Below are positions 7,157 to 27,693 of a DNA stretch of 47,611 bases, one piece after another. A model generated the notes under the pieces. That model did not search any database. It worked only from the letters and a program-made list of their open reading frames with translations, and was not told the origin of the DNA. Source of the DNA: Escherichia phage vB_EcoS_swi2; sequence record NC_054649.1. One strand, given 5' to 3'. Every line of letters starts with the position of its first letter. The first letter of the stretch is position 1. The position numbers and the translations under genes were made by a program.

Positions 7157-7170
7157 GGGGCTTATTTTTC
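7146..7170. terminator. Bidirectional terminator hairpin between convergent genes
   Basis: agcccc gtaa ggggct hairpin followed by T-run; overlaps stop codon of the plus-strand gene. Confidence 0.6.
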
Positions 7171-9547
7171 ACTCTGTTGCTCTCCTGTTGGTATTAAAGT
7201 TTCTTGAGATAGATTGGCTCATCGGTCCGCCTTCATTCATATCGGATATAAATGTCTCAATAGTTATCGAGCCATCACCGTTATCAGTGGCTCTGCTTGT
7301 TGCGCTAGCATTGCTTGAATTATTGTAAACATTATTATAGACCACAACTCCGCCACCTCCACCGGAAATATCCTTATTGCTGATAACCTTTCCTGAGTTG
7401 CCAGGTATCATGTATTGCCTGCCTGTACTCGCCTGGAATATTTCTGGTGCATTTCCCTCGCCCACTTCGTACATACTTCCTGCACTAACAGGGCCACCAT
7501 TTTTTCGCTTGCCAGCAATTCCCATCGCCAGCGCCCCGAGAACAGCACCTACCCCAATTGCAGCCGCTCCACCGAAAGAACCGATTGATGCGACGATTGC
7601 CGCAGGAGTCCATGCTGCCGTTGTGGTGGCTGCCGCTGCAGTTGATGCTGCTGTTGTGGTTGCCAGTCCTGCCGTTTGCGCCGCTGTGGTGGTAGCTGTT
7701 GCCGCAACCTGCGCAGTCTGCCCCATAACGGCGGATTTAACCCACTGAACGCCCATTTCAACAAAGCTGTTTACCAGAGAATTCAGCACCGTAGAGCCGA
7801 GGCTGCGCATTGCATCCTGAACGCTCATTGTGCCTGTGAGCAATCCAGTGATGCTGTTTGATGCTGCACTCATCGCTGAATCAAGCGCCGTGCCGAACAA
7901 TTGCGCCCCGAGGCTTTGCTGCTGCCATTCAGCCCACATCGCATCCATTCTCTGCTGGCGATACTGCGCTTCAATTGCTGCGCGAGCCTGCTCAATCTCC
8001 GTGATTTTCTGCGGATATGCTGCGGCGTAGGCGTCAAGGTCAGCCATGCGTTGCTGGTATTCGCTATCAATGCCAGCCGTTGGCGACGCAATGGCGCGTA
8101 ATCCCTGATATGATTGTTCTACTCGCTGTCTTTCCTTCTCAGCTGCTGCCTGCTCCTTCAGTGCATTCTTCTGGTCCCAAATCTTGGCAGCGTACTCGCC
8201 AGCCAGTTTTATCTGCTCCTGAGTTGCCGACTTGCCAAGCGATTGCTGCGCGTTGAGGATGGCTTGCTCGCGGGATAGTTCGCTGGTAGATGTGGCATTG
8301 AGCATGGTTTGCTGGCGTAATTTCTCCAGCTTTTCAGCCACTGACTCAGCTTGCCGTTCTTCTGCACTTTTTCCTGTTGCTTTTTTCTTTTTCTCTTTCT
8401 CTGCTGCTTTTGGCACTGTCAAGTGCGCCTGCGCCTTTGCCGCTTCCCCTGTCGATTTGGTGACAGCATCCATATCCGCGACCAATGTGGCCGCCTGATT
8501 TGCTACCGCCGCTATGGCTTGATTCTGCGCAGCCCAACCATCAATTCCAATCCATGACCATGTTCTTGCTCTACGACTGAACATTTCTGCTGTTGATGTC
8601 AAATCAGAAATAACCTCTGCCGCACCTATGGTCTGACCAGTTAGTCTGTTGATTGCTGAGGTAATAGAGTCAATAACTGAAACAAAGGTAGAACTGGCTC
8701 CGGTTGCTTCGTTTATGCTTGCTATCATTTTTGCAAATGATGTTTCAAGACTGCCAGTCGCCTGAGATATAGAGCGCGGTAGCTTTGCGAACTCAGCATT
8801 GACGACACTCGTCCTGTCCTGAATGGCATTCAGTGCATCTTCTGCTGTCAGTTTGCCATCGAGCATTCTTGCGCGAAGTTCACCCATTGAAATGCCAAGA
8901 CCCGCCGCAATCTGGCGAGCAAGCTCAGGCATCTGTTCAAGGATGGAGTTAAATTCTTCGGCGCGGATTGTGCCAGATGCGATTGACTGACCGAACTGAC
9001 GTAATGCATTCGCCATTTCTTCAGTTGATGACCCACCTATTCGACCTATTTTTTGCAGGGTATCTGTAAGGTTCAGAACCTGCGCATTTGTCGCTCCAGC
9101 CTCTTTCAGTGATGACGTCAATGTTTCCCACAACTTCGTAGTGTCACTGAGGCTTGCGCCAGTGGTCGAGGCGATATTTGCCAGTGTGCTGAATGTTTCG
9201 TTCGCGGTTTTCGCATCAGTTGACAGGCGAGCAATCCTTGCCTGAAGCTGAGTCATGTTATCGGCAACCTCAAGGAATCGCTTTCCCCATTCGATAATCA
9301 GTGACACGGATATTGCGCCAGCCAGCATCGACATGCTGGTTTTAAGCCCTGAAGCTGCGCCGCCAGCATTCTTCATTCCGCTGCCAGCATTGCGCGCGCC
9401 TTTATCCAGCTTGTTGAACTCTCCTGTAGTCTTGTTTAGTGATGATTCAAGGTCATCTAAAGTCTTATTGGCTGTTGTCGCGCCAGCTTTCAGGCCTTTA
9501 ACATCCATCCCGACTTCATAGACAATTCCGCCGACTTCTTCAGCCAT
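7169..9547 (-). CDS. Tail tape measure protein
   Basis: 792 aa, Ala/Gln-rich predicted coiled-coil over most of length, Ala/Thr/Gly-rich hydrophobic segment near C-terminus, position between chaperone and minor tail genes. Confidence 0.8.
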   Translation of the reverse strand: MAEEVGGIVYEVGMDVKGLKAGATTANKTLDDLESSLNKTTGEFNKLDKGARNAGSGMKNAGGAASGLKTSMSMLAGAISVSLIIEWGKRFLEVADNMTQLQARIARLSTDAKTANETFSTLANIASTTGASLSDTTKLWETLTSSLKEAGATNAQVLNLTDTLQKIGRIGGSSTEEMANALRQFGQSIASGTIRAEEFNSILEQMPELARQIAAGLGISMGELRARMLDGKLTAEDALNAIQDRTSVVNAEFAKLPRSISQATGSLETSFAKMIASINEATGASSTFVSVIDSITSAINRLTGQTIGAAEVISDLTSTAEMFSRRARTWSWIGIDGWAAQNQAIAAVANQAATLVADMDAVTKSTGEAAKAQAHLTVPKAAEKEKKKKATGKSAEERQAESVAEKLEKLRQQTMLNATSTSELSREQAILNAQQSLGKSATQEQIKLAGEYAAKIWDQKNALKEQAAAEKERQRVEQSYQGLRAIASPTAGIDSEYQQRMADLDAYAAAYPQKITEIEQARAAIEAQYRQQRMDAMWAEWQQQSLGAQLFGTALDSAMSAASNSITGLLTGTMSVQDAMRSLGSTVLNSLVNSFVEMGVQWVKSAVMGQTAQVAATATTTAAQTAGLATTTAASTAAAATTTAAWTPAAIVASIGSFGGAAAIGVGAVLGALAMGIAGKRKNGGPVSAGSMYEVGEGNAPEIFQASTGRQYMIPGNSGKVISNKDISGGGGGVVVYNNVYNNSSNASATSRATDNGDGSITIETFISDMNEGGPMSQSISRNFNTNRRATE

Positions 9548-10293
9548 TATGTGTTCCTCGCTTTTTTCGCTTTGCGTTCAGCCAGTGCCTTCATGCGCTC
9601 ACGGTCTGCTTTAGCCTGATCGTACTCTGCCGCGCGTTCTTCTTTCGTTAACCCTTTCGGCTCTGGATATTTATTCTTAATCATCATCTGAAACTCTGTC
9701 ATGGACAGGTTTTCAGCCTCATCGCGCGTCATGTCGAAATGCGTGCGTGCTGAGATGATGTATTGCGATGCATGAAATTCGTTTGTGGTTTTCTTGCCTT
9801 GCTCTTCCAGACGCTCAGGAACTTTGAGTGGTGACTTGCCGATGATGCCGTGCTCCATTAATGAGCGGGCAATCTCAATAATTCCACCTGTTCCCCCTGG
9901 CAAATGCCCAGTGCCGCCAATTGGCATTACTCCCGGCACATATCTCACACCACGCGGAGTTGGCTTCCATCCACCAATCAGCACGGAAATATCATCTTCA
10001 CAGCATGACTGCATGACGATGTAGGCGGCGCTCAGTACATGGCGACCATACACGGGCTTGCTGATGGTCTTCATGACCTGCATCTGCGCGCCAAATGGCA
10101 GGTATTCGACGTGCTGCAATGGCGCAACATAATCAATGCCATTGAGCTTAGCGTACACCTCGACGATTTCCTTTGGTGTGCCGATTTCATTCATGGCGCG
10201 GAATGATGGCTTAAAGAAAAAACTCCTGTCAGAAAGCGAGATGCGCATCTCCCCGATTTCTGTTAGTGGCGTGCGATTGCTCATGTTTTGCAT
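9547..10293 (-). CDS. Putative tail assembly chaperone (G/T-equivalent by position)
   Basis: 248 aa ORF immediately upstream of tape measure gene; exact start uncertain (several in-frame ATGs). Confidence 0.4.
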   Translation of the reverse strand: MQNMSNRTPLTEIGEMRISLSDRSFFFKPSFRAMNEIGTPKEIVEVYAKLNGIDYVAPLQHVEYLPFGAQMQVMKTISKPVYGRHVLSAAYIVMQSCCEDDISVLIGGWKPTPRGVRYVPGVMPIGGTGHLPGGTGGIIEIARSLMEHGIIGKSPLKVPERLEEQGKKTTNEFHASQYIISARTHFDMTRDEAENLSMTEFQMMIKNKYPEPKGLTKEERAAEYDQAKADRERMKALAERKAKKARNT

Positions 10294-10313
10294 CCTGAAT
10301 TTGACTGATGTTG

Positions 10314-10319
10314 ATTATA
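10314..10319 (-). promoter_or_regulatory. Minus-strand -10 element (TATAAT) upstream of the chaperone gene
   Basis: Perfect TATAAT on minus strand about 20 nt upstream of ATG 10293. Confidence 0.3.
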
Positions 10320-10333
10320 TCATCTCAGTGGTG

Positions 10334-10362
10334 TTGACACCTGCTAGGTGGTGATGTAGATT
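10334..10362 (+). promoter_or_regulatory. Sigma70-type promoter TTGACA-N17-TAGATT
   Basis: -35 TTGACA 10334-10339, 17 nt spacer ending gtgatg, -10 TAGATT 10357-10362; 35 nt upstream of ORF 10398. Confidence 0.6.
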
Positions 10363-10397
10363 CAAGTCATGGAAGCAGATGAGGAATGAGGTGATTT

Positions 10398-10712
10398 ATG
10401 ATTAATAAGAAAATTATTATTTGTGGTTTGTCAGCGGTATTTCTGATTGGCGCAATGCAGGTAGCTGTCATGCTTGGGTTTATGAAGCCTCTATTCATGT
10501 TCAGTTATAGCGGAGCAATACAGAGCGTATCACTGTTATTTGTTATTGGTTTAGTTATTTTTGTGTACCTTTTGCCTGCATTTGTGGCGCTACAACGCAA
10601 GCATGTAAACACAACAGCAATTTGCGTGCTGAATATTTTTGCTGGCTGGTGTTTCTTTGGTTGGGTGGCTGCACTGGTTTGGGCTTTGGTTAAAAGTGGC
10701 GACAAGAAATGA
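10398..10712 (+). CDS. Small integral membrane protein (accessory gene; candidate superinfection-exclusion type protein)
   Basis: 104 aa with several long hydrophobic segments; own promoter; plus strand inside minus-strand tail cluster. Confidence 0.5.
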   Translation: MINKKIIICGLSAVFLIGAMQVAVMLGFMKPLFMFSYSGAIQSVSLLFVIGLVIFVYLLPAFVALQRKHVNTTAICVLNIFAGWCFFGWVAALVWALVKSGDKK

Positions 10713-10852
10713 ACGAACAAACAAAAGCTGACCTGACTTTCTACACTGAATTGTATGTTGATGCTGGTTATGACTACGAAGAAGCAGAGCGAATGGCAAA
10801 AGACCTGCTTCGTGTGATTGGTGTGATTTTTGATGAGGATAAGGTGATATGA
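10709..10852 (+). CDS. Small acidic hypothetical protein
   Basis: 47 aa ORF with ATGA start/stop overlaps to both neighbours. Confidence 0.35.
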   Translation: MNEQTKADLTFYTELYVDAGYDYEEAERMAKDLLRVIGVIFDEDKVI

Positions 10853-11049
10853 GCCAGTGGATTAAGTGTAGTGATAGGATGCCTGAAGAAGGCGAGATGG
10901 TTCTCACAGCATTTCGTGGTGTCGTTAGAACTGCGGTATGTAAAGTTATCGACAACATTGGCAGTAAGATTTTTGTTAGTGAATTAGAACGCTGTCACGG
11001 CATTCCAGCTACCCATTGGGCCAATCCACCAGAACCACCACAAGAATAA
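10849..11049 (+). CDS. Hypothetical protein (DUF551-like N-terminus MSQWIKCSDRMPEEG)
   Basis: 66 aa ORF, ATGA coupled, followed by terminator. Confidence 0.4.
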   Translation: MSQWIKCSDRMPEEGEMVLTAFRGVVRTAVCKVIDNIGSKIFVSELERCHGIPATHWANPPEPPQE

Positions 11050-11052
11050 AAC

Positions 11053-11078
11053 AAAGCCCCTTTCGGGGCTTTTTCTTT
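11053..11078. terminator. Bidirectional terminator hairpin
   Basis: aaagcccc tttc ggggcttt followed by T-run; between convergent plus accessory operon and major tail gene. Confidence 0.6.
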
Positions 11079-11079
11079 A

Positions 11080-11796
11080 TCAGGATACAGTGCAAGCTGT
11101 ACTGATGATAATTTCAGGGTCAGTAGATGAATCAGTCACTGTAACGGTATATACGCCAGCCGTAGGACTTGCCAGCGATGCGCCTGATTCACCACCAACA
11201 ACTACGCCATCTTTGCGCCACACGTAAGTGTAAGGAGAGATGCCACCTTCAACAACAACCGTTAACGGGCTTCCAGTCGTGCCAGTTGGTTGCAGGTCAG
11301 TAGTGAACTTCAGAGGCTCAAGGCTTTCGACGGTAACGCTGTCAGAATCATACACCTTAAACTCAAGGCTTCCGGTAACGATGTCGTTAGTGCCGCCTTC
11401 GTAGCTGATGCTGGTGATGTTGCAGTACGCGGTAACGATAGTCGCACCAGTCACCTCGCGAACCCACAAGGAAGGCTGGCGACGAGCTTTCAGTTCAGTG
11501 GTGTAAATCTCGACCAGACGATGGAAGCCAAACTCATCGCTCGGGTCATTCTTGCGGATTTCCACTTCTGCGCTGATGGTCATATCAGAGCTGGTAACGA
11601 GAGTGGAAACAAAGCCGCCAGCGGTATCAGCTTCAGACGTGGTAGTCTGCGGTGAGTAGTCAACACCCTTACTGGTGGTTGAGCCTAAATACTTCCAGTC
11701 TTCTGCCTCCGGAACTGCGTCACCGCATCCTTCAGCAAGGAACAGTCGAGTCATACGACCGACCAGAACGCCCTTATCATTTGCACAAATAGCCAT
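11080..11796 (-). CDS. Major tail protein with C-terminal Ig-like domain
   Basis: 238 aa, position at head of tail operon, C-terminal segment TVVVEGGISPYTYVWRKDGVVVGG...GVYTVTVTDSS resembles Big_2-type Ig domain as in lambda V. Confidence 0.6.
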   Translation of the reverse strand: MAICANDKGVLVGRMTRLFLAEGCGDAVPEAEDWKYLGSTTSKGVDYSPQTTTSEADTAGGFVSTLVTSSDMTISAEVEIRKNDPSDEFGFHRLVEIYTTELKARRQPSLWVREVTGATIVTAYCNITSISYEGGTNDIVTGSLEFKVYDSDSVTVESLEPLKFTTDLQPTGTTGSPLTVVVEGGISPYTYVWRKDGVVVGGESGASLASPTAGVYTVTVTDSSTDPEIIISTACTVS

Positions 11797-11831
11797 TTCG
11801 ATCTCCGAATTGTGTTAGCTGCTAACGTGGT

Positions 11832-11840
11832 GATTATATC
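11832..11840 (-). promoter_or_regulatory. Extended -10 promoter element (TGnTATAAT) on minus strand upstream of major tail gene
   Basis: Minus-strand TGATATAAT about 35 nt upstream of ATG 11796. Confidence 0.35.
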
Positions 11841-11847
11841 ACAGGTG

Positions 11848-11876
11848 TTGACAGTGATTATTTTGTGGTGTAGATT
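11848..11876 (+). promoter_or_regulatory. Sigma70-type promoter TTGACA-N17-TAGATT driving the noncoding/tRNA region
   Basis: -35 TTGACA 11848-11853, spacer ends gtggtg, -10 TAGATT 11871-11876; no plus-strand ORF follows, tRNA lies downstream. Confidence 0.5.
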
Positions 11877-12344
11877 GTATTTCAGATAGTTTTCGTGAGC
11901 GACTTTGCGGACTTTTTAGAAACTGATCACAAAGATAAATGCAAACGAAGAAATGTATCTGGCCGTAGCTTAACAGCTAAACACAAGTGAGGTATTCCAG
12001 TTCCTCATCAACGAATCTTGCGCACTGGCCCGGTGTGATTAATAATGGGCACACAACGGAAAGAGCATTACTGGTGACGGAGACTAGCGATTAGCTATAT
12101 GCGAAAGTTCTAGAAGCCAAGGCGGTTCGACTCCGCAAGTGCTCTTTCCGGTGTGGTGAATGCGCAGGCTGATGCGCGCAGGAGAGCTTCGGAAGAACAA
12201 GGTGCCTGTATACAAGCCGGAGATCAGCACCGGCCACCACAATACTTAACATCCAGCATTATCGCAATCATATGTAGGGGTATGTATGGGTTACGGGGCT
12301 GGATGTTAAGAAAGCACGCTGGCAATGCTTAAACCAGCACTTAT

Positions 12345-12421
12345 GGACGCGTAGCTTAATTGGTTAAAGCAACCGACTCATAATCGGCTGATTGAAGGTT
12401 CAAATCCGTCCGTGTCCACCA
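12345..12421 (+). tRNA. tRNA-Met (anticodon CAT; could alternatively be Ile2-type)
   Basis: Acceptor GGACGCG pairs with CGTGTCC, D-stem GCTT/AAGC, anticodon loop CTCATAA, T-loop TTCAAAT, 3-prime CCA encoded; terminator follows. Confidence 0.75.
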
Positions 12422-12427
12422 AATTAA

Positions 12428-12452
12428 AAGCCGCTTTATGCGGCTTTATTTA
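12428..12452. terminator. Terminator hairpin after tRNA
   Basis: gccgc tttat gcggc followed by tttatttatttc. Confidence 0.55.
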
Positions 12453-12866
12453 TTTCACGACCCGTAAAAGCAACTCATGCACAGGACGTTTTTCTTCCGT
12501 CAGCATTGGCCTACCAAGTGGCGCTTGCAACTGGATGTAGTTAACGCATGAATCAATCGGATGCGTCTTGATGTATTCGATAATCTCCAGCGCCTTCGCA
12601 TCAACATCAGCAACGTTGTACTGGCCTTGCTTGCCAACAACATACAGCGAGAAATAGAAGTCACCGCCGAGTCCATCCATCACCTGCGTGCCACCATTGG
12701 ATTGCAGAACAATAAATTGCTCACTTCCATCTCCGGTATCATTCCAGAACTGCAATTGCGAAGTCCAGCCATCATACAATCCGGCATCCTGAAGATATGC
12801 ATCAACCAGCTCAAGCATGTTCATATTAAACCCCAATATTGCAATATCGATGCACATATCATACAC
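12450..12866 (-). CDS. Putative tail completion / head-tail joining protein
   Basis: 138 aa ORF in neck-gene region between capsid and tail modules; function by position only. Confidence 0.35.
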   Translation of the reverse strand: MYDMCIDIAILGFNMNMLELVDAYLQDAGLYDGWTSQLQFWNDTGDGSEQFIVLQSNGGTQVMDGLGGDFYFSLYVVGKQGQYNVADVDAKALEIIEYIKTHPIDSCVNYIQLQAPLGRPMLTEEKRPVHELLLRVVK

Positions 12867-12994
12867 TACCTATGTCACGTAGGCGTGGAACCCGAAACGA
12901 CACACAGGCAACAATGAATTTAACGCCCTTGTCAGTATGGTTTGTTGCAACCATGTTCCACCTGACAGGGGCGTTTCCCTTTTGGAGTGAGTAA

Positions 12995-13486
12995 ATGATT
13001 TCAGAGCGGGATTACATAGCAATCGCGTCAAGGGTTAAATACGACCCGATTACCGGATTGTTCACCTGGGCTGTAAGTTGCGGGAAAATATCAAAAGGTG
13101 ATATTGCAAATTATCACAACGACGCAGGATACATAACACTTGGGAAGAAAAGATTAAGGGCGCACCGAGTGGCTTGGTTTATCCATTATGGATATGTCCC
13201 TGAGCATGAAATTGATCACATAAACAATATTCGTGATGACAATAGAATTTCAAACCTGAGGGAGGCCAGTGACTGCGAGAACGCAAGGAACACAAAGATA
13301 TCTAAATCAAACACGTCTGGATATAAAGGAGTTCATTTTTGCAAGTACACGGGAAAATGGAGAGCCACGGTAAAGATGCATGGGAAAAGCTATCATCTTG
13401 GTAGGTTTTCAGACAAAGAAGCCGCCCATAAAGCCTATTGCAAAAAAGTAGATGAACTGTTTTTGGAGTTCGCAAACCACGGCTAA
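12995..13486 (+). CDS. HNH homing endonuclease with C-terminal AP2 DNA-binding domain
   Basis: HNH_3-type motif AHRVAW...EIDHINNIRDDNRISNLR followed by AP2-like SGYKGVHF...GKWRATV...GKSYHLGRF; opposite strand to flanking structural genes; AT-rich. Confidence 0.8.
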   Translation: MISERDYIAIASRVKYDPITGLFTWAVSCGKISKGDIANYHNDAGYITLGKKRLRAHRVAWFIHYGYVPEHEIDHINNIRDDNRISNLREASDCENARNTKISKSNTSGYKGVHFCKYTGKWRATVKMHGKSYHLGRFSDKEAAHKAYCKKVDELFLEFANHG

Positions 13487-26261: not shown

Positions 26262-26744
26262 TTATCTCCTTGTCAGTGATTCGTATTGCTTCTGGCATGC
26301 TAATCCCGCCTCTCTTGCTCTGTCAGCGTAATCTGCCAGTTGTCGATTTCTTTCGACAGATTCTGAGAGCAGCTGGGCAAGCAAAACTCCGGTTTCTGCG
26401 GCTGGATTGCCAATGGACTCAGCGGTGGAATATCCGACGAGTTGCTTGCGGATGTTTGCAAGTTGTTGCTGCAACCTGCCAGACTTAGCGGCAGCATTAA
26501 CAGCATCATTGCGCGCAGCATCAATCCTTTGCTGTGCGTTAGCCTGAATCTTTTGCAGTTCTGCATTGCGTCGTTGCTCCTCTTTTTCGTCTGCGGCCTT
26601 CTGTTCTGCAATTGCTTGAGCTTTGCCTTCTGCGTATCGCTGGTCGCCGTACTCTACAACCTCTCCGCGAATCCATAGCGCACCAGCAGCAACAATTATA
26701 ATAATTGCCAGTGGTTGCCAGTATTTAGCGAGAATTGACATCAT
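26262..26744 (-). CDS. i-spanin (Rz-like)
   Basis: N-terminal transmembrane segment then Ala/Gln-rich coiled-coil; downstream of endolysin and holin-like genes. Confidence 0.6.
   Translation of the reverse strand: MMSILAKYWQPLAIIIIVAAGALWIRGEVVEYGDQRYAEGKAQAIAEQKAADEKEEQRRNAELQKIQANAQQRIDAARNDAVNAAAKSGRLQQQLANIRKQLVGYSTAESIGNPAAETGVLLAQLLSESVERNRQLADYADRAREAGLACQKQYESLTRR
26300..26521 (-). CDS. o-spanin (Rz1-like) embedded in the Rz reading frame
   Basis: Alternate frame inside Rz; signal sequence MLRAMMLLMLPLSLAGC with lipobox Cys, Pro-rich mature part. Confidence 0.55.
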   Translation of the reverse strand: MLRAMMLLMLPLSLAGCSNNLQTSASNSSDIPPLSPLAIQPQKPEFCLPSCSQNLSKEIDNWQITLTEQERRD

Positions 26745-26964
26745 TGCGCAGCCTCCGGTTTTCCTTCCTCATGCCGTGCATTTTGCCGAGGATGCCAACC
26801 AGCATGATTGAGTAGCTCACCCCTTTAACCACGATTGGCGGCAGCGCTGCTTTCAGGTCGTCCGGCATCATTACCCACACATGCATCATTGCGTCAGGCC
26901 ATAGCTGCAATAGCGAACAGAATGAAATCCACGCGCCGAGCAGCCAGTTGCTTAGTTTTTTCAT
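26725..26964 (-). CDS. Holin-like small membrane protein
   Basis: 79 aa, two hydrophobic segments and charged C-terminus; ATGA overlap with endolysin stop. Confidence 0.5.
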   Translation of the reverse strand: MKKLSNWLLGAWISFCSLLQLWPDAMMHVWVMMPDDLKAALPPIVVKGVSYSIMLVGILGKMHGMRKENRRLRNDVNSR

Positions 26965-27428
26965 GCCACAACTCCGCCAGCCTCTTTGTATACCTGAATC
27001 AACTTATCCAGTTTCTGCTCATGCTGACCATATCCAGCACCGGGCAATGAAGCCCAACGTGAGCGGCATTTATGAATGGCATCAGCAATGCGGCCAGCCT
27101 CAACATCGGCGGTGGCTTTGCATTCGCGGATTAGCTGCATTGCAATAGCATCCTGCGATGCGGGGGAGAAGTCCGGTAAACGCAACTGCTTTTTGTACGC
27201 ATCATAAAATTTAGCCAGCACCTGATAGCGCCCAGCGGCAGTGGATTTGATGCCCAGCTTAGGCAGGCTAATCAGCTTGCGCGGGTGATCGGAATATTCG
27301 GTAAACAGTGAGCCACCTACAATCACATCATAGCCATGATTGTTGGTTTTCTGTCGCCCGTTATCCGTGCCCTCGCTGTACGCCAGCATATCCAGAAACG
27401 CCTTCATGTTTTTGCTAATATCCATACC
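26961..27428 (-). CDS. Endolysin, lambda R-like lytic transglycosylase
   Basis: MDISKNMKAFLDMLAYSEGTDNGRQKTNNHGYDVIVGG...AGRYQ closely matches lambda R along full length; start at internal Met of track ORF. Confidence 0.9.
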   Translation of the reverse strand, partial: GMDISKNMKAFLDMLAYSEGTDNGRQKTNNHGYDVIVGGSLFTEYSDHPRKLISLPKLGIKSTAAGRYQVLAKFYDAYKKQLRLPDFSPASQDAIAMQLIRECKATADVEAGRIADAIHKCRSRWASLPGAGYGQHEQKLDKLIQVYKEAGGVVA

Positions 27429-27693
27429 AGTAAACCTCTTTTTCAGCTTTACGTTTTGCCTTGTCGCCAGTCTTCTCGCCCCACAAGATGAAATGAGCAA
27501 CGGCACACGAGAAGCAGCGTAGATTGTGCTTCTTCAGAAGCGTTGATTTGCGGAAAGTGTCAATGCCGATGTCGGTGGCGAGGCTTGTCAGGGCATCAAA
27601 CTGATTCTGCGTTGTCTCGGCGGTGATGTAAGGCGATATATCCACGGCATCGGTGACATCAAGCGCCTCCATGCCGCGTTGCGATAGTTCCAT
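27415..27693 (-). CDS. Hypothetical soluble protein at head of lysis operon
   Basis: 92 aa ORF with AGGAGG RBS 5 nt before ATG; no transmembrane segment. Confidence 0.45.
   Translation of the reverse strand: MELSQRGMEALDVTDAVDISPYITAETTQNQFDALTSLATDIGIDTFRKSTLLKKHNLRCFSCAVAHFILWGEKTGDKAKRKAEKEVYWYGY

Follow-up and report, generated by a model that had tools for sequence, protein, structure and literature searches.

We analysed a three-gene block in the genome of Escherichia phage vB_EcoS_swi2 (NC_054649.1; 47,611 nucleotides (nt), the whole of this stretch being referred to here as the window). The block occupies positions 10334–11078, within the interval 10294–11079, and its first gene (imm, 10398–10712, plus strand; 104 amino acids (aa)) encodes a rare, long form of the T4 Imm family of membrane proteins. 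The function that we propose for the block, with a probability of about 0.6, is an early-expressed inner-membrane barrier to DNA entry by superinfecting phages. The second gene (p47, 10709–10852, plus strand) encodes an acidic 47 aa protein, and this protein, not the membrane protein, is the conserved heart of the cassette. The third and last gene (10849–11049, plus strand) encodes a 66 aa DUF551 protein.

The 104 aa protein was placed in the Imm family by profile and sequence comparisons. In Pfam, it matched PF14373 (Imm_superinfect) with E=1.4e-15 and 57.3 bits, the curated cut-off being 27.9, and the match, formed by the C-terminal 42 residues of the protein, spanned the full profile (positions 1–42 of 42). 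The protein also matched PHROG_1039, ‘immunity to superinfection’ (E=4.4e-21), and BLASTP aligned it with T4 Imm itself (30 % identity over 53 aa, E=2e-9). In a 12-sequence alignment including T4 Imm, seven residues (Y57, P60, A64, I75, W84, G88 and W95) were invariant. Hydropathy analysis detected three hydrophobic segments (residues ~5–27, 38–66 and 72–99), in agreement with a preliminary description of this DNA, which had proposed a multi-pass membrane protein. Residues ~46–104 correspond to the Imm core of two helices, a basic loop, QRKH, separating the segments at ~38–66 and 72–99.

Residues 1–45 (10398–10533) form an N-terminal extension with the extra hydrophobic segment and a conserved GFMKPLFMFSYS motif; most Skatevirus-type (Skate-type) relatives lack this ~45-residue extension and have a 64 aa Imm beginning with MDVVI. 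No nucleotide match to 10401–10533 was found in the GenBank phage collection, the best phage records of which cover just 83 % of 10300–11080, and BLASTN of three close relatives was also empty there. The closest long forms, P0001 and P0002 (74 and 66 % identity), represent only two protein clusters among 5.8 billion, and both are located at the same position in their contigs. Long forms were detected only in these, in three loci (L006–L008) and as 99 aa Klebsiella-type forms (BUCT610 and Flyfo Tbat1_6), the latter being ~45 % identical to the 104 aa protein and sharing the extension motif GF[MI]KP[LV]FxFSYS. Because this motif is common to the Klebsiella-type forms, the extension is an old alternative form and not an artefact. 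The Klebsiella-type forms also carry an AQA motif at a suitable place for signal peptide cleavage. Judged from hydropathy and the positive-inside rule, the extension would serve as an N-in signal anchor or as a signal peptide that is cleaved; in both cases, the motif would be periplasmic and the orientation of the core would be kept.

The genes of the block are preceded by a sigma-70-type promoter (10334–10362, plus strand), composed of TTGACA, a spacer of 17 nt and TAGATT. This promoter scored 10 of 12, with a perfect −35 hexamer and a −10 hexamer that matches at four of six positions. The first gene has a Shine–Dalgarno sequence, GAGGTG (10388–10393, plus strand), 4 nt before its ATG; the 47 aa gene has no good Shine–Dalgarno sequence of its own, and the DUF551 gene has AAGGTG. 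Stop and start codons overlap as ATGA at both gene junctions (10709 and 10849), the start of the 47 aa gene thereby overlapping the stop of imm. The unit ends at a bidirectional intrinsic terminator (11053–11072, both strands), a G+C-rich hairpin with T-runs on each strand, for which the folding energy was −13.4 kcal/mol on the plus strand (z=−3.3) and −17.4 kcal/mol on the minus strand (z=−4.3), as compared with shuffled controls. The three ATGA-coupled plus-strand genes and the terminator of the preliminary description were thus recovered as described; the promoter that it had called consensus is present, and is better termed near-consensus, as its −10 hexamer matches at four of six positions.

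To compare the block across relatives, we used as anchor the DUF6246 protein encoded next to it, so that the presence of the cassette was not presupposed, and fetched 78 IMG/VR loci. A total of 82 DUF6246-to-major-tail regions from IMG/VR and other loci, including a few duplicates of the same phage, were compared, and 76 of them carried the cassette. The window is ~90 % nucleotide-identical to the Skatevirus/Deseoctovirus cluster (C1, BS5, Sf11, KFS-SE2, IME207, ASO78B and BASEL Bas77–81), and the locus is common to more than 200 phage records. In the records of relatives, the genes are annotated as ‘superinfection immunity protein’ or ‘immunity to superinfection’ and as ‘DUF551 domain-containing protein’. 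The block is an accessory cassette of the whole group, known from the annotation of GenBank relatives, and is not special to this genome. What this copy adds is the minimal three-gene version together with the rare 104 aa Imm. The Skatevirus/Deseoctovirus/Roufvirus-like phages (C1, BS5, Sf11, KFS-SE2, ASO78B and BUCT610) share with the window the position, promoter, terminator and the 47 aa and DUF551 genes at ~90 % nucleotide identity; the Skate cluster differs in carrying the 64 aa Imm, often accompanied by further genes (for DUF2591/NinX, BS5 gp34 or a secreted protein of 97 aa).

The signals at both ends of the cassette are conserved as well. The motif TTGAC[AT]-N16–18-TAGATT, with a variable spacer, was found in 75 of the 76 related cassettes, in which the DUF6246 anchor protein is 52–100 % identical, and such recurrence is well beyond chance. 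The terminator hairpin is kept in both main groups (Skate and Klebsiella), with a compensatory change in the stem (GCCCC/GGGGC versus CCCCC/GGGGG). At the equivalent sites of ASO78B, divergent promoters and a terminator were marked by its annotators. By its sequence, the hairpin at 11053–11072 is predicted to stop transcription in both directions, from the cassette on the plus strand and from the convergent major tail gene on the minus strand.

Of the six relatives that are most distant (36–45 % anchor identity), five (L081–L084 and L086) have the major tail and DUF6246 genes 49–80 nt apart without a cassette, which argues for a moron-like insertion; the sixth (L085) has a gap of 603 nt with two small unrelated open reading frames (ORFs). 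The content of the cassette differs between close relatives, with imm being optional (36 of 76 cassettes) and the variable middle genes encoding DUF2591/NinX, HNH endonucleases, DUF7740 and others. The G+C content of the cassette is 41.9 % (36–40 % at the third codon position) compared with 50–51 % in the flanking tail genes, and lies at the 10th percentile of same-sized windows. Taken together, the conserved promoter and terminator, the insertion pattern, the low G+C content and the exchanged content show an independent, inserted and exchangeable transcription unit. Along with the deletable DUF551 gene described below, these properties favour the accessory insertion that the preliminary description had proposed. 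Expression from a repressed prophage for the lysogen, which is one mark of a moron, does not apply here, as these phages are virulent: the relative C1 has neither an integrase nor a repressor annotated, and Skatevirus-type phages are virulent small siphoviruses with O-antigen tailspikes (PMC11990801). The block is thus moron-like in structure but in a virulent, lytic setting.

Based on these features, we propose the following course of events. The host sigma-70 RNA polymerase would start early in infection at TTGACA-17-TAGATT and produce a transcript of ~700 nt that ends at the bidirectional hairpin, as suggested by the sequence and its conservation. The first gene would be translated from its strong Shine–Dalgarno sequence, the 47 aa gene by ATGA coupling and the DUF551 gene from its own Shine–Dalgarno sequence. 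The two-helix core of Imm is probably embedded in the inner membrane, its basic QRKH loop facing the cytoplasm, while hydropathy and the positive-inside rule would make the N-terminal hydrophobic segment a signal anchor or a cleaved signal peptide and place the GFMKPLFMFSYS segment in the periplasm. By homology with T4 Imm, the protein would stop the DNA of later phages of the same or a related kind from crossing the inner membrane, so that the infected cell would be shielded from competitors and wasteful re-infection. The 47 aa protein, predicted to be a cytoplasmic helical hairpin, would always be co-expressed and is probably the reason why the cassette is maintained, and the DUF551 protein would be a dispensable accessory. 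Owing to the virulent lifestyle of the relatives, exclusion would act during lytic infection, as in T4.

The superinfection exclusion suggested by the preliminary description thus draws its support from homology, namely, the Pfam and PHROG Imm matches and the T4 Imm alignment, with HK97 gp15 as a positional precedent. According to the T4 sequence record, T4 Imm leaves superinfecting DNA in the periplasm. The two proteins share a homologous two-helix membrane core with the invariant Y, P, A, I, W, G and W, both are small with a basic inter-helix loop, and both belong to virulent phages. In contrast to T4 Imm, the window protein is longer at its N terminus by ~45 residues, which include a third hydrophobic segment and the GFMKPxFxFSYS motif, and the polar C-terminal tail of T4 Imm is missing from it. 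The T4 gene is located among early DNA-metabolism genes, whereas the window gene is located in a siphovirus tail region. In this respect, the cassette resembles HK97 gp15 (YebO-like), an inner-membrane exclusion protein encoded by a moron in a siphovirus tail operon, which blocks genome injection (PMC3594210). Each has its own promoter and terminator and lies among siphovirus tail genes beside the tape measure gene, and both encode a small inner-membrane protein, the location being predicted for the window protein. However, there is no sequence relationship between them: for the window protein, Pfam gave Imm_superinfect alone above threshold, plus a sub-threshold match to DUF3302. Furthermore, HK97 is temperate and gp15 is expressed from the prophage, whereas the present phage group is virulent, and the cassette has at least three genes and is antiparallel to the tail genes.

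Several observations weigh against superinfection exclusion as the function of the block. In the literature found, T4 Imm is the sole member of PF14373 tested for exclusion; no published exclusion test of a Skatevirus-type Imm was found there, and exclusion by the cassette genes is not mentioned in the BASEL study of Skatevirus phages (PMC11990801). The similarity to T4 Imm, at 30 % identity, is confined to a hydrophobic core of 53 residues, and T4 is a myovirus with a different injection machinery. The imm gene is absent from a locus with an identical DUF6246 protein (L009; IMGVR_UViG_3300045988_027122) and from most Klebsiella-type relatives, indicating that it is not needed for growth. Finally, the −10 hexamer of the cassette promoter departs from the consensus at two of six positions, and early timing of expression is deduced from sequence.

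Comparison with L009 defined the site at which the first gene is exchanged. In L009, a 97 aa secreted protein is encoded in place of the long Imm, and homology with the window runs through the promoter, ribosome-binding site and ATG, stops at 10401 and resumes at the ATG of the 47 aa gene (10709). The exchange coincides exactly with the boundaries of the first gene. This secreted protein, which contains two cysteines, precedes or replaces Imm in 22 related cassettes (L001, L009–L031 and others; PHROG_2315). The slot upstream of the 47 aa gene, delimited on its other side by the promoter, ribosome-binding site and ATG, thus appears to be an exchange point, into which Imm (short or long), the 97 aa secreted protein, or both, would be brought by recombination. 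By analogy, the secreted protein recalls T4 Spackle (Sp), a periplasmic protein that partners Imm when T4 excludes other phages, since it has the size and the signal-peptide architecture of the Spackle precursor; the window does not encode the secreted protein. A direct relationship to Spackle was rejected, as no similarity was detectable (hhalign probability 0.4 %).

The occupant of this slot was compared with the neighbouring tape measure protein in 33 Skate-type loci. Cassettes with the secreted protein only were found with long tape measure proteins (816–1107 aa) and Imm-only cassettes with short ones (~780–800 aa), with the exception of L071, which is Imm-only with a tape measure protein of 1107 aa and also carries a gp34-like gene. 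The association between the envelope gene and tape measure length gave a permutation p=0.002, which is not corrected for, and is confounded by, linkage and ancestry. In the same 33 loci, no relation was detected between cassette type and the type of the C-terminal hydrophobic module of the tape measure protein.

The 47 aa protein has a pI of 4.1, with 12 D+E against 5 K+R, and hence is acidic, as had been described previously. Its ORF is intact in 75 of the 76 cassettes and recognisable in the remaining one. Within the Skate cluster, the protein is mostly 94–98 % identical (with one outlier of 87 %), compared with 78–86 % for Imm, and it carries the conserved motif AD[LF]xFYxxLY[VI]DxG[YF]xxEEA. 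The AlphaFold2 model is a helical hairpin with a predicted local distance difference test (pLDDT) score of 89.6. The protein matched PHROG_17424, a family without a functional label, and no informative match was obtained in Pfam, NCBIfam (none above threshold), PADLOC or Foldseek. When 1.84 billion cluster representatives were searched exhaustively with a profile, only ten matches were found, all of them near relatives or weak, indicating that the protein is restricted to this phage group. When the model was compared with PDB by Foldseek, nothing fell below E=1, and generic helical hairpins, such as the N-terminal domain of EF-Ts, ranked highest; among viral models, Foldseek gave only uncharacterised proteins of 40–60 aa, the top matches of which (36–49 % identity) may be members of the family.

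The conservation of this protein raises the less likely possibility, the chief rival or complement of exclusion, that the cassette is above all a unit for host takeover or anti-defence, in which the 47 aa protein, perhaps together with the DUF551 protein, acts on a cytoplasmic host target and Imm is an optional passenger with minor or no exclusion. The near-universal presence of an intact 47 aa gene, its place as the first gene in most Klebsiella-type loci without Imm and the higher conservation of its product than of Imm all point in this direction. The protein is also small, acidic and confidently predicted to be helical, a build typical of many early phage inhibitors of host proteins. On the other hand, no homology or fold match assigns a function to the 47 aa protein, and BASEL Skatevirus isolates are markedly sensitive to restriction-modification and Old, which argues against a broad anti-restriction factor (PMC11990801). 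A role of this kind would be compatible with Imm-mediated exclusion, and both could hold.

Genome-reduced mutants of seszw, a Skatevirus, have been published and deposited in GenBank (PMC9825161), and bear on the same possibility. We counted the seszw-type records (MZ375232–MZ375355 and OL9647xx; locus L088) that retain each part of the cassette at ≥99 % identity. The major tail gene with the cassette was found in 71 records, the 47 aa gene in 73, the first gene (in seszw, that for the 97 aa secreted protein) in 71 and the DUF551 gene in 66. The DUF551 gene (gene 29) was lost in about 5 of 68 mutants, including the smallest, MZ375351 (36.5 kb), which retains genes 30 (47 aa) and 31 (97 aa). 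As these mutants are viable, the DUF551 gene is dispensable under laboratory conditions. No sequenced mutant had lost the 47 aa gene or the first gene, which is suggestive, and only suggestive, of their importance. The retention of the 47 aa gene, with the loss of the DUF551 gene in some mutants, would fit a host-directed role; it may simply reflect the few CRISPR targets in a gene of 141 nt, as short genes had few usable targets in the seszw study (PMC9825161).

Combining the slot with the 47 aa protein leads to a further interpretation, a two-part device limited to this phage group, which we regard as rather unlikely. One part would be the 47 aa hairpin, a needed or nearly needed early protein with a host target, and the other an upstream ‘exclusion slot’ of alternative envelope proteins, filled through recombination at the start of the 47 aa gene and at the conserved promoter, ribosome-binding site and ATG. 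Under such an arrangement, the contents of the slot (short Imm, long Imm with its periplasmic extension, Spackle-sized secreted protein and combinations of these) might track the type of tape measure protein to be blocked.

It appears improbable that the Imm-like protein acts on the infection cycle of its own phage, through lysis timing, a holin- or antiholin-like activity or membrane energetics, and not on incoming phages. The protein is small with two to three transmembrane segments, as in class II holins, and its core gave a PADLOC match to the 2TM module of 2TM-TIR effectors; this match is weak (E=0.004) and probably reflects amino-acid composition. Among near-identical phages imm is optional, and the Pfam match is to the Imm family and to no holin family. 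Moreover, a complete lysis cassette is located elsewhere (26262–27506), and the homologous region of C1 is annotated with holin, endolysin and Rz-like spanin genes; for this reason, a holin role for the 104 aa protein was rejected. That the block is an inert, unexpressed remnant with ORFs kept by chance or linkage is hardly credible, even though no direct expression data were found, as the frames, ATGA overlaps, promoter hexamers and terminator stem are conserved down to 52 % anchor identity, amino acids are kept where nucleotides have diverged and two of the three proteins exceed curated Pfam thresholds.

Should the Imm homologue indeed exclude superinfecting phages, the T4 type of immunity, for which the experimental evidence comes from one myovirus, would extend to a large group of virulent siphoviruses. 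This group infects Salmonella, E. coli, Shigella and Klebsiella and has been widely put forward for use in biocontrol and therapy; the exclusion of one phage by a related one bears on how cocktails are combined. Natural variants with no Imm, short Imm, long Imm or the secreted protein exist in otherwise near-identical phages. The cleaner experimental target is the 47 aa protein, which is never lost. Apart from these points, the block is an ordinary accessory cassette.

The 66 aa product of the last gene matched DUF551 (PF04448) over the full profile (positions 1–68 of 68) with E=9.1e-12 and 46.1 bits, above the curated cut-off of 22, and its description as DUF551-like is therefore justified. 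DUF551 is a portable domain that also occurs in YfdS and in certain variants of Ea22 (PMC10834534, PMC4776307). No sequence-related structure was found in PDB, and the AlphaFold2 model was poor (pLDDT 56). The gene is the last in 36 of 38 Skate-type cassettes. Its homologues (P0063–P0139) are mosaic, with the N-terminal MSQWIKCSERMPEEGE and C-terminal THWMPLPEPPQE in common and three unrelated middles exchanged between them, which suggests recombination at the conserved gene ends. An antisense ORF of 122 aa (10590–10958, minus strand) overlaps the three conserved plus-strand genes, has no Pfam match and is most likely spurious.

The genes flanking the cassette are all on the minus strand, antiparallel to it. 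On one side are the tape measure gene (7169–9547; Pfam TMP_3) and, directly upstream of it, the DUF6246 gene (9547–10293; PF19759, E=4.5e-67; PHROG_791), and on the other is the major tail protein gene (11080–11796; PHROG_853 ‘major tail protein’, E=2e-85). The DUF6246 gene occupies the usual position of a tail assembly chaperone, and that label reflects position only. An extended −10 promoter half, which reads TGATATAAT, is located on the minus strand at 10312–10322, 19 nt before the start codon of the DUF6246 gene. The window contains the exact 11-mer TGATTATATCA at only two sites (10312 and 11831), and this 11-mer is found at the same offset in 38 of 38 Skate-type loci. It belongs to a bidirectional promoter module, TGATTATATCA...GGTGTTGACA-N17-TAGATT, of which the window contains only two exact copies (10312–10362 and 11831–11876), each giving TGATATAAT (extended −10) on the minus strand; on the plus strand, the first copy would drive the cassette. 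The second copy gives TGTGATATAAT on the minus strand and is located ~35 nt upstream of the start of the major tail gene. The minus-strand half at 10312–10322 probably restarts transcription of the DUF6246 and tape measure genes, and the major tail gene would form its own transcription unit, from the second module to the shared hairpin. Since each flank has its own minus-strand extended −10 promoter, the cassette does not lie inside one continuous tail operon. The placement given in the preliminary description, between the major tail gene and the chaperone and tape measure genes, is thus correct as to the neighbours, with ‘chaperone’ being positional, but not as to a single tail operon.

The plus-strand promoter of the second module (11831–11876) points into a short tRNA region with its own hairpin. 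Downstream of this promoter, the plus-strand unit at 11880–12455 contains a tRNA-Met (CAT) at 12345–12421 (Rfam, 63 bits), followed by a hairpin and T-run at ~12425–12450, and a tRNA-like remnant near 12122 with a GGTTCGACTCC T-arm, which ARAGORN reported as part of a dubious ‘tmRNA’. An Rfam scan of 9500–13000 detected tRNA only. At the position of this unit, ASO78B carries tRNA-Ser and tRNA-Arg.

Further along the window, a homing endonuclease gene with HNH_3 and AP2 domains (12995–13486, plus strand; Pfam E=9e-16) is located among minus-strand head–tail genes, and its BS5 homologue is annotated as an HNH homing endonuclease. The lysis cassette (26262–27506, minus strand) includes a spanin-like gene (DUF2514), within which a lipoprotein ORF (LAGC lipobox) is embedded, a gene for a DUF7940 protein of 79 aa with two transmembrane segments, which is likely to be the holin, and an endolysin-like ORF of 181 aa, which had no Pfam match at E<0.01 and the C1 equivalents of which are annotated as endolysin.

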